A stretch of DNA of 64,000 nt from Minisyncoccota bacterium (lineage in GTDB: Bacteria > Patescibacteriota > Minisyncoccia > Phycocordibacterales > PALSA-1337). Positions 42,481 through 45,256 of the stretch are shown piece by piece. Under the pieces are notes generated by a model that was given only the letters and a program-made list of their open reading frames with translations, was not told where the DNA came from and did no database searches. The stretch covers positions 94,618 through 158,617 of the forward strand of contig JBAZRG010000002.1 in assembly GCA_041663145.1 (NCBI GenBank), read 5' to 3'. Numbering within the stretch: position 1 is the first letter of the stretch; every line of letters begins with the position of its first letter. A program made the position numbers and the translations under genes.

Positions 42481-42554
42481 TGTTGCGGGGAGCGGAATCG
42501 AACCGCTAATTTTCAGGTTATGAGCCTGACGGGTTACCGTTACCCTACCCCGCG
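42481..42554 (-). tRNA. initiator tRNA-fMet (CAU)
   Basis: The reverse complement reads CGCGGGGTAGGGTAACGGTAACCCGTCAGGCTCATAACCTGAAAATTAGCGGTTCGATTCCGCTCCCCGCAA. It has the C1xA72 mismatch and closely resembles the E. coli tRNA-fMet acceptor arm. CCA is not encoded. Confidence 0.8.
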
Positions 42555-42673
42555 ATGATATAGACGTATTGGAGCTATTCTGGCATAAAATGGTGTAGCG
42601 TGCAAGAGGATAAAAAGGGTAGAATACATAACGTGTTTGCATAGAGATTCATTTTCGTCTATTGTAATCATAC

Positions 42674-42750
42674 GTCGGCGTAGCTCAGGTAGTTAGAGCG
42701 AGGGACTCATAAGCCCTAGGTCGCAGGTGCAAGTCCTGCCGCCGACACCA
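42674..42750 (+). tRNA. tRNA with CAT anticodon (elongator Met or, more likely, lysidine-modified Ile2)
   Basis: GTCGGCGTAGCTCAGGTAGTTAGAGCGAGGGACTCATAAGCCCTAGGTCGCAGGTGCAAGTCCTGCCGCCGACACCA. Its T-arm resembles E. coli ileX (GGTCGCTGGTTCAAGTCCAGC). CCA is encoded. Confidence 0.7.
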
Positions 42751-42796
42751 TTTCACACTTTGTTTTTTGGCCGAGTTCTGGTACATTAATGTCCAT

Positions 42797-42870
42797 GCGC
42801 CCGTAGTTCAGTTGGCTAGAACGCTCCCCTGTCACGGGAGAGGTCGTGGGTTCGAACCCCATCGGGCGCG
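42797..42870 (+). tRNA. tRNA-Asp (GUC)
   Basis: GCGCCCGTAGTTCAGTTGGCTAGAACGCTCCCCTGTCACGGGAGAGGTCGTGGGTTCGAACCCCATCGGGCGCG has a clean cloverleaf with anticodon loop CTGTCAC. Confidence 0.9.
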
Positions 42871-43230
42871 CTTGACAAACCCAATAGGTATGATATAATA
42901 GTAGGGTAAGATTGAAACAGATAGATTTTGACAGTCAAATAGGCAAAGGGATTTAATGTATGAAGACAATAGAATTTTTTCTGGTTTGTCGTGCTGTTGG
43001 TAAGCATGGAAACGTAGCACGAGTTGCAATCCATGTTCTCGCTCTCTTAACGAGACACGAGGATTGGGATCGCGCAGTGGCCGGAATTCGTCGCGAATTT
43101 TCGCGATAGAATTCCACTCAATACGAAGAGGGGTAAGAGACTTGAAAAAACTTACCCCACTTTACTGAGCCTATAAAAATTGAAATTTGTAGGCTCACAG
43201 AGTGACGATGTTTTTAAATACCATAATATG

Positions 43231-43258: not shown

Positions 43259-43433
43259 ATAACCATTCACCACAACAAAATACCTCAAGTTGTTTTTGTG
43301 TCGATATTCATATATGATTTCAAACATTCGCGTTGGATCATTGAAATCATTTAGTGTACAGAAGTAAATATAAGCCGATGTAGCTGTCTTGGTAGCTCTG
43401 ACGCAAATCATTTAGTGTACAAAAGTAATACAA

Positions 43434-43699
43434 GCCGATGTAGCTCAGTTGGTAGAGCACGCCATTGGTAGGTCGTAAGACCCTGCCCATTTCGGTGGTA
43501 ACGCCGAGATGAATCCCGAATAACGGTTAAAGTCCCGAGAGTAGTCGAGGGATAAGACCGTGGCGTTTCGATTTTATCGAGACGCCCGAACGACTGACAA
43601 GGGTCTCCAAACGTTGGAGAAAGATACAGTCTAGTCCTCCCGTAAGGTGAGGTGTAAACGAATGGCGAGGTCTCCGGTTCAATCCCGGACGTCGGCTCC
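43434..43699 (+). tRNA. tRNA-Thr (GGU) interrupted by an intron of about 191 nt in the anticodon loop
   Basis: 5' exon: GCCGATGTAGCTCAGTTGGTAGAGCACGCCATTGGT. 3' exon: AATGGCGAGGTCTCCGGTTCAATCCCGGACGTCGGCTCC. The exons join into a perfect cloverleaf with anticodon loop TTGGTAA. Confidence 0.75.
43470..43660 (+). ncRNA. group I (self-splicing) intron in tRNA-Thr anticodon loop, no internal ORF
   Basis: The exon ends in U and the intron ends in G. GCCGA about 30 nt into the intron can pair with the exon TTGGT as P1. AAGATACAGTC matches the group I S/P7 element consensus AAGATATAGTC. CGAACGACTGACA resembles the R element. The size is similar to the small Azoarcus-type tRNA introns. Confidence 0.65.
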
Positions 43700-43735
43700 T
43701 TGTTTGTTAAAGTGTGTTTCGATATACTCCTTCTA

Positions 43736-44194
43736 ATGCCGATGCCAAGAAAGATTCGTAATATGTGTCTTATGTGCGGGAATGAGCCAGCCCGTCCATC
43801 ATACAAATATTGTTGTAATTCGTGTCAGCTTGAGTTTCAGCATCTTGAATATATTCGTAAATGGAAATTAGGAGAATTAAATGGACTTAGCAGTATTGGT
43901 ACAGTCTCTGTTCATGTGAAAAAGTACTTGAGAGAGAAATATGGTAACAAATGTATCCTATGTGGCTGGTCTGTAGTAAATACAAAGACTGGTCTGGTTC
44001 CACTAGTTGCAGATCATATTGACGGCAATTGGCGAAACAATTATGAGAGTAACTTGCGTCTCATTTGTCCAAATTGTGATTCGTTAACAGCAACTTATGG
44101 TGGTTCCAATAAAGGTAACGGTAGAACAGGGAGAGTTGTTAGCAAAAGAGTCCTTGAAGGAAAAAAGTTTGTATTGCTTTCTACGCCGATGTAG
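43736..44194 (+). CDS. HNH endonuclease (free-standing, between the two tRNA-Thr genes)
   Basis: CMCGNE...CNSC zinc knuckle followed by CILCGW...LVADHIDGNWRNNYESNLRLICPNCD, an HNH core. The start may be the ATG at 43736 or 43763. The stop codon lies inside the following tRNA. Confidence 0.7.
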   Translation: MPMPRKIRNMCLMCGNEPARPSYKYCCNSCQLEFQHLEYIRKWKLGELNGLSSIGTVSVHVKKYLREKYGNKCILCGWSVVNTKTGLVPLVADHIDGNWRNNYESNLRLICPNCDSLTATYGGSNKGNGRTGRVVSKRVLEGKKFVLLSTPM

Positions 44195-44260
44195 CTCAGT
44201 TGGTAGAGCGCCACTTTCGTAAAGTGGATGTCCCCGGTTCGATTCCGGGCATCGGCTCCA
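44185..44260 (+). tRNA. tRNA-Thr (CGU)
   Basis: GCCGATGTAGCTCAGTTGGTAGAGCGCCACTTTCGTAAAGTGGATGTCCCCGGTTCGATTCCGGGCATCGGCTCCA. CCA is encoded. Confidence 0.9.
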
Positions 44261-44332: not shown

Positions 44333-45256
44333 ATGAACGACAAAGACAAATTGGAAGAAAAGATAGCCGAATTGGAAACCGCCATGAGTGGTGCAGATTT
44401 TTGGTCTGATAAAGAAAAAGCTCAGACTGTGATCGCGGAACATAAGAAATTAAAACAAGAACTTGAAGGAGTCGGCAAATACGATAAAGGTGACGCTATC
44501 ATGACTATCTTGTCCGGTGCTGGTGGAGATGATGCAGAGGATTTTTCGGCGATACTGATCCGTATGTATAGGAGATACGCCGAGAGTAAAGGTTGGGGTT
44601 GGTCGGTCATTCACGCAAATGAAAACGATCATGGCGGATATAGAAATATTACAGTAGAAATATCCGGTAAATCTGGTGGCACAAGCACTTTGAATGGTGA
44701 AGGGACGCTTGGGGCATTCGGTACATTAAAAAATGAATCAGGTGTTCATAGACTGGTTCGAATCTCTCCTTTTAATGCAAATGAAAAAAGGCACACTTCT
44801 TTCTCGATGGTTGAAGTCATTCCAAAACTAGAAAAATCCACAGCCGAAGATATAGTCATAGCCGATGCCGATCTAGAGATCAGTATTGCCAAGTCCGGTG
44901 GTCCTGGTGGTCAAAATGTTAATAAACGAGAAACAGCGGTGAGATTGGTCCATAAGCCGACTGGTATATCGATACATGTAACATCAGAACGTTCACAAGC
45001 TCAAAATCGAGAGAAAGCTCTGGAGATTCTCCGAGGAAAGATTTGGAAACGCAATGAAGAGGAACGACTAGCGAAGGAGAGAGGTATGCAGATTTCTAGT
45101 ACAACTTCCATAGAATGGGGAAATCAGATCCGATCCTATGTCTTTCATCCGTACAAGATGGTGAAGGATCATCGGACAGATGTGGAAACTTCACAAGTCG
45201 ATAAGGTTATTGAGGGAGAACTAGATGAATTCATAGAGGCAGAGAAGGAGTTGTAG
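44333..45256 (+). CDS. prfB: peptide chain release factor 2 (short form, no programmed frameshift apparent)
   Basis: SPF tripeptide ([20 protein letters not shown]) and GGQ ([25 protein letters not shown]) are present. The product is about 307 aa from the ATG at 44333. Confidence 0.88.

Follow-up and report, generated by a model that had tools for sequence, protein, structure and literature searches.

Group I introns are carried by around 40% of Patescibacteria genomes (PMC13011429). Among the tRNA genes of this phylum, Nakagawa et al. (2026, mSystems, Table 1) recorded introns between positions 36 and 37 of tRNA-Thr(GGU) in three complete genomes, GCA_001029635.1, GCA_016700375.1 and GCA_030583745.1 (PMC13011429). 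The term "divergent group I introns" goes back to Castelle et al. (2018, Nat Rev Microbiol), as credited in PMC13011429. The Thr introns have a canonical group I-like length and predicted structure, are too divergent for the Rfam model RF00028, and group in the published tree with the IA-type tRNA introns (Asn and Asp) of the phylum; the Asn and Asp introns were those used for in vitro self-splicing assays (PMC13011429). HNH genes located inside tRNA-Asn introns were annotated as PF01844, and the tRNA introns of Patescibacteria were judged largely immobile (PMC13011429). In phage T4, SegB is a free-standing homing endonuclease that lies in a tRNA cluster and recognises a conserved tRNA motif, and it has been proposed that processing of tRNAs from the shared transcript lowers the expression of such endonuclease genes (PMC2330249). 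Here we analyse a stretch of 64,000 nucleotides (nt) from a Minisyncoccota bacterium (assembly GCA_041663145.1, contig JBAZRG010000002.1, positions 94,618 to 158,617), hereafter the window, in whose own numbering all positions are given, on the plus strand unless stated. It contains a tRNA-Thr(GGU) gene split by a 191-nt insert, followed by an HNH endonuclease gene and by tRNA-Thr(CGU). With a probability that we put at about 70%, these are two separate elements side by side, a group I intron of the published family and an independent free-standing HNH homing endonuclease gene.

The whole split tRNA gene spans positions 43434-43697. Its 5' exon (43434..43469) provides the acceptor stem, the D arm, the 5' side of the anticodon stem and U33-G34-G35-U36, and its 3' exon (43661..43697) provides A37-A38, the 3' side of the anticodon stem, the variable loop, the T arm, the 3' strand of the acceptor stem and the discriminator. 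When introns are allowed, ARAGORN calls a tRNA-Thr(ggt) at 43434-43699 and places its 191-nt intron at position 37, and the spliced tRNA is a canonical 75-nt cloverleaf. This agrees with the initial annotation of the window, which had restored the cloverleaf by removing 191 nt between U36 and A37 and had pointed to an exon U before the 5' splice site and to a terminal G: U36 (43469) is the last exon base 5' of the insert, and the insert (43470-43660) closes with G43660. The insert had also been described as devoid of an open reading frame (ORF), and the search for plus-strand ORFs of at least 30 residues found none in it. The pairs of the anticodon stem, which are formed from exon to exon, covary among homologues (helix 1), and no second tRNA-Thr(GGU) is visible within the window. 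Both default ARAGORN and the Rfam tRNA model miss the split gene. A promoter scan returned no sigma-70-like promoter on the plus strand for the split tRNA, and candidates picked by eye fell below the threshold of the tool. On the minus strand, an ORF of 132 residues (43408-43806) lies antisense to both exons of the tRNA, to its intron and to the first part of the HNH gene; it is almost certainly not a real gene, yet automated gene calling could report it and thereby hide the tRNA.

GTDB species representatives were scanned with the neighbouring PrfB, which yielded 80 syntenic loci (loci are designated by L and a number). The closest PrfB relatives are all metagenome-assembled genomes of Patescibacteria/Paceibacterota with at most 77% identity, and the window is placed as Paceibacteria-like. 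A homologous insert is present in four of these 80 PrfB-centred loci (L053, L054, L012, L052), and seven further ones were recovered from the surroundings of HNH homologues (L082, L086, L090, L133, L141, L142, L163). All 11 lie in tRNA-Thr(GGU) between U36 and A37, end in G and measure 173-227 nt, with nhmmer E values between intron homologues of 1e-10 to 1e-32. Together with the window intron they form a comparative set of 12 introns, which was aligned unguided with MAFFT and folded with RNAalifold. A covariance model of the set, R1, scores its members at 155-194 bits and finds no other intron copies in the window.

Across this set, a group I architecture can be followed from P1 to P9. The minimum free energy of the insert is -77.6 kcal/mol (z = -6.1 relative to shuffles), and the corresponding fold shows hairpins in the expected order, that is, P1 (with its extension), P2, P4/P5, P6, P7, P8 and P9. 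The RNAalifold consensus contains 50 pairs, 29 of them with compensatory changes; once the P3 pseudoknot is included, standard pairs fill 94.8% of cells, compared with 31-44% in slid-partner controls, both sides have changed in 31 of 53 pairs, and none of 500 shuffles reached the observed values. Compensatory support is found in P2, P3, P5, P6, P8 and P9, and the covariation is heavy in all of these except P3. P1 (43467..43487) is formed by exon G34-G35-U36 with intron AGGUC, a GUAA loop, GACC(C)U and the guide GCC at 43485-43487; a U36·G43485 wobble marks the 5' splice site, and the GC, GC and UG pairs are conserved (helix 2). The pairing between anticodon and GCC guide is seen in 11 of the 12 aligned rows, L163 being off by one column, and the pairs on the intron side of P1 covary (AU/GU/GC/UA; GC/AU). 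P2 (43488..43511) is a 10-base-pair (bp) hairpin with a GUAA (GNRA) loop in which eight of ten pairs have changed on both sides (helix 3). The 5' strand of P3, CCC (43515..43517), pairs with GGG at 43601-43603 in a pseudoknot with P7, is 100% paired (helix 4) and shows two compensatory CG-to-UA exchanges (L052, L142). P4 (ACGGUU 43523-43528 and GACCGU 43556-43561, within 43523..43561) surrounds J4/5 (AAAG) and the P5 hairpin (43533-43552), in which all four consensus pairs covary. P6 (43562..43586) is an 11-bp hairpin with a UUU loop and both-side changes in four of six consensus pairs (helix 7). The following block (43587..43603) comprises J6/7 (CGAAC), the P7 5' strand GACUG (43592-43596), J7/3 (ACAA) and the P3 3' strand GGG, and is invariant in 12/12 introns except for the compensatory changes in P3. 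P8 (43604..43620) is a 7-bp hairpin with covariation in 6/6 pairs (helices 9 and 10). It is followed at 43621..43631 by AAGATACAGTC, which joins J8/7 (AAGAUA) to the P7 3' strand (CAGUC), is invariant in 11 of 12 homologues and aligns with the matching element of RF00028 and of tRNA-Asp and tRNA-Met introns. The intron closes (43636..43660) with the P9 hairpin, which carries a GUAA loop (43636-43652; helix 11), the tail UGUAAAC and omega-G 43660, and the terminal G is present in all 12 introns. The joining regions are essentially fixed throughout the set: GAAUA (J3/4), AAA (J4/5), CGAAC (J6/7), ACAA (J7/3) and AAGAUA (J8/7).

Since this covarying P1-P9 structure is shared by 12 introns, the insert is, judged by comparative structure, a genuine group I intron, as the initial annotation had read it. 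Folding, which had been suggested there as a check, together with the comparison of homologues supports the core, its P3/P7 pseudoknot and a U·G pair where the 5' exon ends, and the S-element-like sequence that had been singled out corresponds to J8/7 and the P7 3' strand at 43621-43631. In splicing, exogenous guanosine would attack after U36 and the terminal G43660 would then take the place of that guanosine, with the anticodon stem holding the exons together until they are ligated into a normal tRNA; the intron is probably functional. Several observations weigh against this assignment. The Infernal search with Rfam group I models that had been proposed gave no detection, as the insert reaches 12.4 bits with RF00028, whose gathering score is 50 (E = 2.8 in a permissive search), and aligns sensibly just over the AAGAUACAGUC-P9 end (J8/7-P7-P9). 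P3 is merely 3 bp long. P4 and P7 are invariant across the 12 introns, so that covariation neither supports nor contradicts them. No splicing assay or RNA data for the Thr intron family were found in the literature. The failure of RF00028 is read here as a limit of the model, because the same failure has been reported for the published family (PMC13011429). The initial annotation would have taken the lack of a covariance-model hit as a refutation; because RF00028 misses this family, that rule would wrongly reject the intron.

Some other assignments were considered and discarded. The P1 guide named in the initial annotation, GCCGA, was mistaken: at 43503-43507 it sits in the covarying 3' strand of P2 and is unconserved, the conserved guide being GCC at 43485-43487. 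A 7-bp pairing of AGACCCU (43478-43484) with AGGGUCU (43600-43606) as P3 would place P3 inside P1 and is not kept by the homologues. Matches of the insert to the Rfam models Plastid-ycf2, IMES-2 and DUF3800-XI lie far under threshold and are taken as chance. An archaeal-type (bulge-helix-bulge) or a group II intron is disfavoured by the covariation of the group I core, and neither a reverse transcriptase nor anything resembling domain V was seen.

The window intron is a further member of the published tRNA-Thr(GGU) 36/37 family and thus no discovery. It shares with the "divergent group I introns" (PMC13011429) the phylum, the host tRNA, the anticodon, the 36/37 site, the size class, the absence of an ORF and the failure of RF00028, and nothing essential differs; membership is set by these shared features, and sequence homology is shown among the members found here. 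Within the group, among 38 related species that lack the HNH gene and have a tRNA-Thr(GGU) at the locus, the intron occurs in 4, and it is absent from the nearest PrfB relatives of the window, L002-L008 (74-77% identity), which indicates a patchy distribution. Intron-less alleles, whose presence in related genomes had been put forward as a check, exist, for instance in L044. The earlier remark that tRNA group I introns are uncommon and patchy in bacteria stands for bacteria in general; it fails for this phylum, given the share of genomes with introns quoted above.

The second element, a predicted free-standing HNH endonuclease gene of 152 residues, occupies positions 43736..44194. It starts with ATG at 43736, the first in-frame start being TTG at 43700, and ends with a TAG at 44192-44194 that lies inside tRNA-Thr(CGU), so that the last codons, ACG-CCG-ATG-TAG, run into the tRNA. 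The latter (44185..44260) is recognised by the Rfam tRNA model (72.1 bits) and by ARAGORN, and its nucleotides 8-10 (UAG) are the stop codon of the HNH gene. The placement of this gene between two tRNA-Thr genes, with its stop inside the next tRNA, had been noticed from the start and is borne out, and the gene is intact. Its product combines an N-terminal CxxC...CxxC zinc ribbon with an I-HmuI/HNH_3-type core, C..C-(16)-DHIDGNWRNN-ESNLRL-CPNC, and the motif LVADHIDGNWRNN-ESNLRL-CPNC resembles the homing endonuclease I-HmuI. HNH endonuclease families of PHROG match the product at E ~1e-15 (4e-15). The match to Pfam HNH_3 is weak (16.5 bits relative to a cutoff of 24.8), and the sole match in the PDB, I-HmuI, is weak as well (E = 0.19 over 24 residues). 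The core is 46% identical to that of hegA of phage T5; tblastn detected no homology with hegC, hegD or T5.069 of this phage, the hegA core alone matching. A look-up of the exact protein sequence returned nothing on record, and that for PrfB yielded just a contig of 1.6 kb. At least 1660 protein clusters at 64-76% identity, from Parcubacteria, Portnoybacteria, Berkelbacteria and others, make this a large family. Across 20 diverse members, 53 positions are invariant, including C73, C76, D93-H94, N98/N101/N102/N106, C111 and C114, and covering two CxxC pairs in the zinc ribbon and two around the HNH core. In terms of sequence motifs, the catalytic HNH motif with flanking, predicted zinc-binding Cys pairs is present.

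The genomic surroundings of this family were surveyed in three GTDB loci, eight loci from exact-protein look-ups and 80 metagenomic loci (of about 600 or more). In the subfamily with at least 57% identity, tRNA-Thr(CGU) stands directly 3' of essentially every HNH copy. In nearly all loci of the candidate phyla radiation (CPR), this tRNA begins at -10 to +63 nt relative to where the stop codon ends, and roughly half of these loci show the exact -10 overlap; at this junction, the ORF finishes with NNG-CCN-NNN, which forms the acceptor stem, and U8-A9-G/A10 of the tRNA serves as the stop. What lies upstream varies, from tRNA-Gly(CCC) and tRNA-Thr(GGU), with or without intron, to protein genes. 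More distant members (45-55% identity) adjoin tRNA-Thr(UGU), Tyr, Ala or Gly, some of them with the -10 junction. On viral contigs, 77 of 80 homologues lie no more than 2.5 kb from tRNA genes, which are often densely arrayed; a tRNA starts at most 100 nt from the HNH stop in 42 of the 80, and the -10 overlap is found in 11. Overall, the -10 overlap, with UAG or UAA as stop, is seen beside Thr(CGU), Thr(UGU), Thr(GGU), Gly(GCC), Lys and Arg tRNAs in CPR as well as viral sequences (viral loci L170-L173, L181, L228/L229, L233/L234 and L239/L242; 44185-44194 in the window). No description of a junction in which the tRNA supplies the stop, or of the fixation on tRNA-Thr(CGU) in CPR, was found in the literature that could be searched, and the junction between HNH gene and tRNA-Thr(CGU), the sole mildly new element of the locus, appears undescribed. 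Cleavage by RNase P at position 1 of the tRNA may strip the stop codon of the HNH gene from the shared transcript, which would keep expression low.

The HNH gene is most likely a putative selfish, free-standing homing endonuclease gene, an assignment for which its sporadic presence at a fixed site, its decayed copies and its phage relatives in tRNA arrays argue. Among the PrfB-centred related GTDB loci with tRNA-Thr(CGU), only 3 of 59 carry it, and empty sites consist of two tRNA-Thr genes 2-30 nt apart (e.g. L002, L054). The copy in L080 (3199-3645) is frameshifted near the N terminus, and those in L146 (1108-1467) and L147 (349-690) lack the first ~40 residues even though the upstream sequence is present. 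The 715-bp gap of L012 was also checked for an HNH gene and proved to encode an unrelated P-loop protein instead. The enzyme would cut tRNA-Thr(CGU) loci devoid of the HNH gene, and its gene would then be copied into them by repair.

The independence of the two elements is manifested when intron and HNH gene are counted together over 62 non-redundant HNH-positive loci, window included. There is no tRNA-Thr(GGU) nearby in 45 of them, an intron-less tRNA-Thr(GGU) in 10 and an intron-containing one in 7 (the window among these), so that at 55 of 62 HNH-positive loci (~89%) no Thr intron exists within the available sequence. Reciprocally, the HNH gene is absent from 4 of 11 intron-positive lineages (L053, L054, L012, L052). 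L044 has an uninterrupted tRNA-Thr(GGU) with exactly the sequence of the spliced tRNA in L082 and L012, and an intact HNH gene follows it at a distance of 92 nt. These three results do not fit the suggestion of the initial annotation that the HNH gene resembles one that has left its intron or acts in trans. Nothing suggests that the gene once lived in the intron, since all 12 introns are ORF-less and the HNH genes reported in tRNA-Asn introns are annotated with another Pfam family, PF01844. The adjacency seen in the window would reflect the use of the same tRNA-Thr cluster by both elements, and a functional partnership is not supported.

Three observations count against such a picture of an autonomous selfish gene that is independent of the intron. 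Firstly, where a tRNA-Thr(GGU) is present, the intron is found in 7 of 17 loci with the HNH gene versus 4 of 38 without it (naive Fisher p = 0.024), in a comparison whose loci are not independent and that includes a window selected for having both elements; a loose link, such as co-conversion of intron and HNH gene, is possible. Secondly, the divergence of the HNH proteins (62-76% identity) is about that of PrfB from the same genomes. Thirdly, no sigma-70-like promoter was found for the HNH gene in the scan of the plus strand.

The first of these observations bears on an alternative in which the intron hitch-hikes with its neighbour. The free-standing HNH endonuclease would cut tRNA-Thr clusters without an HNH gene, and the repair tract would drag in the ORF-less intron ~40-70 nt upstream, so that the intron spreads passively with the endonuclease gene and its insertion site itself is not targeted. 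In agreement with this form of trans homing, the intron ends 36-75 nt 5' of the HNH start in the window, L082, L086, L090 and L133, and there are precedents in phage T4: homing by SegB co-converts flanking tRNA genes (PMC2330249), and mobE promotes trans homing of a neighbouring defunct intron endonuclease (PMC2790892). However, the enrichment is weak, with phylogenetically dependent loci and an ascertained window in the count, the three closest loci with both elements (window, L082, L086) may represent a single ancestral event, and both the four intron lineages without HNH gene and the 10 HNH loci with intron-less tRNA-Thr(GGU) speak against it. We consider this route unlikely. Proposed jointly with it, and to be taken as equally tentative, is the idea that a stop codon supplied by tRNA nucleotides 8-10 could tie endonuclease output to tRNA processing, through a stop-less message and its handling by transfer-messenger RNA, and thereby limit a toxic enzyme. 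A further pair of loci touches on the mobility of both elements. L082 and L084 share 99.9% identity over a segment that begins 71 nt upstream of the tRNA-Thr(GGU) with its intron and runs across the HNH gene and tRNA-Thr(CGU) into prfB, and they are completely unrelated upstream of a breakpoint at locus position 2617 (Amidase/NUDIX versus SmpB/PLD/IF3). The breakpoint is either a rearrangement or an assembly chimera, and the pair is uninformative on the mobility of intron or HNH gene because PrfB lies within the identical part.

The second observation, the parallel divergence of HNH and PrfB, leaves room for vertical descent with frequent loss. The HNH gene would then be a vertically inherited host gene, with a role in DNA uptake, repair or defence, or a functional co-transcription with tRNA-Thr(CGU), that has been lost many times. 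The 53 invariant positions in 20 diverse members and the fixed locus in many CPR lineages fit with this idea as well. Nevertheless, the gene persists in so few of the related species that share the locus, degenerate copies exist, and its closest relatives outside CPR are phage genes in tRNA arrays, beside many different tRNAs, a pattern typical of homing endonuclease genes (T5, T4 SegB). On balance, a host function is a doubtful explanation, and a selfish homing endonuclease gene continues to be the better account.

Far less probable is the collaborative homing implied by the initial annotation, in which the HNH enzyme would cut intron-less tRNA-Thr(GGU) at or near the insertion site and the intron would protect its own genome. 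Known examples of such an arrangement are cyanophage psbA and the DNA polymerase genes of T7-like phages, and intron and HNH gene are neighbours in the window, L082, L086, L090 and L133. L044 is the clearest case against it: an enzyme that cuts the intron-less site would cut the chromosome of L044 itself, where the intact HNH gene stands beside an uninterrupted tRNA-Thr(GGU), and the HNH gene is therefore no collaborative homing endonuclease of the intron. The 10 HNH loci with intron-less tRNA-Thr(GGU) and the 45 without one nearby argue in the same direction, and the conserved partner of the HNH gene is the downstream tRNA-Thr(CGU), with its fixed junction. Finally, a decayed or protein-dependent intron, or a pseudogene, that does not mature tRNA-Thr(GGU) by self-splicing would fit the missing Rfam match and the short P3, yet it is highly improbable, given that the exons are intact and the anticodon stem covaries, that invariant core joining regions and covarying helices among hosts whose PrfB proteins are just 60-75% identical imply selection on RNA structure, that the window shows no second tRNA-Thr(GGU), and that related Patescibacteria tRNA introns self-splice in vitro (PMC13011429).

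Around the two elements, the locus has some further features. The upstream region of tRNA-Thr(GGU) forms a tandem duplication of ~60 nt (43344-43463), whose first unit (43344..43403, plus strand; context only) contains a truncated look-alike of a tRNA 5' end, GCCGATGTAGCTGTCTTGGTAG, at 43374-43395. Comparable look-alikes, GCCnnnnTAGCTGT(C/T)TTGGTAGgt, precede genuine tRNA-Thr genes by 35-80 nt in the window and its relatives (L012 2577, 2613, 3533 and 3585; L014 2166 and 2206; L044 3258; L045 2840; L055 3849; L071 2616 and 2774; L073 3710), with or without HNH gene or intron. Where a look-alike stands directly before a tRNA-Thr, its initial 7 nt repeat the acceptor strand of the latter and the CAG of the D-loop is replaced by GTC or GTT. 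Downstream, prfB (window 44333-45256) is an uninterrupted ORF of 307 residues with the RF2 SPF motif and PCRF and RF-1 domains, shows no sign of a programmed +1 frameshift site and is followed by ftsE and then ftsX. A tRNA cluster further upstream (42482-42871) comprises Met(CAU) on the minus strand, then Met(CAU) and Asp(GUC) on the plus strand; its synteny extends to many relatives, and the tRNA-Asp of the window has no intron, unlike those of L042 and L044.

The importance of these results lies partly in annotation. Standard tools (default ARAGORN and the Rfam tRNA and group I models) miss a real, probably essential tRNA gene, so that tRNA-Thr(GGU) would be scored as absent here and inferences on completeness or decoding would then be wrong. 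In addition, a large conserved HNH family of CPR, with its at least 1660 clusters, most likely joins the tRNA-cluster homing endonucleases known from T5 and T4. Should the hitch-hiking of the intron prove true, it would qualify the published view that Patescibacteria tRNA introns are without means of mobility and would provide them with a route of spread.

Beyond its own family, the window intron is related to the 35/36 introns of Patescibacteria tRNA-Asn and tRNA-Asp (subgroup IA; PMC13011429), which occupy the anticodon loop in the same lineage and share core blocks with the Thr introns, namely AUAACGGU, ACCGUGG, GACU and AAGAUA(U/C)AGUC. They differ in the insertion site (35/36 versus 36/37) and in the guide, some Asn introns carry an internal HNH gene (PF01844) whereas the Thr introns have no ORF, and the similarity is weak, R1 aligning full length to the tRNA-Asp(GUC) intron of L042 with 20.5 bits. 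Inserts of ~210-227 nt after U35 of tRNA-Asp GUC (35/36 type) are present in L042 (872-1157) and L044 (537-838). The group I introns of Azoarcus tRNA-Ile and Agrobacterium tRNA-Arg, reportedly described by Reinhold-Hurek and Shub in 1992, are alike in being compact (~200 nt), inserted after the third anticodon base (36/37 in tRNA-Arg), with a 3-bp P1 formed with the anticodon and GNRA loops capping P2 and P9; they differ in subgroup (IC3) and in their core sequences. The IC3-like intron of the present lineage is instead that of tRNA-Met CAU in L025 (complement 619-914), an Azoarcus-like (IC3-looking) intron of 224 nt after U33, to which R1 aligns full length with 18 bits. It may deserve a look, given that no Patescibacteria tRNA intron was placed in subgroup IC (PMC13011429).

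As for the HNH protein, I-HmuI (PDB 1U3E), encoded by an intron of Bacillus phage SPO1, shares its catalytic motif, LVxDHxDGNxxNNxxxNLR; I-HmuI differs in its location inside an intron and in having other DNA-binding modules, whereas the window protein has a zinc ribbon and CxxC pairs around the core. Closer in arrangement are hegA, hegC and hegD of T5, F-TflI/II/IV (all HNH) and SegB of T4 (GIY-YIG), endonuclease ORFs set among tRNA genes as in the window. The heg genes lie in the tRNA region of T5, and hegC and hegD overlap the 5' end of the next tRNA like the window HNH gene does. SegB belongs to another fold family, and the window gene differs from all these phage genes in residing on a bacterial chromosome and in its attachment to one tRNA, Thr(CGU), through a fixed -10 junction.

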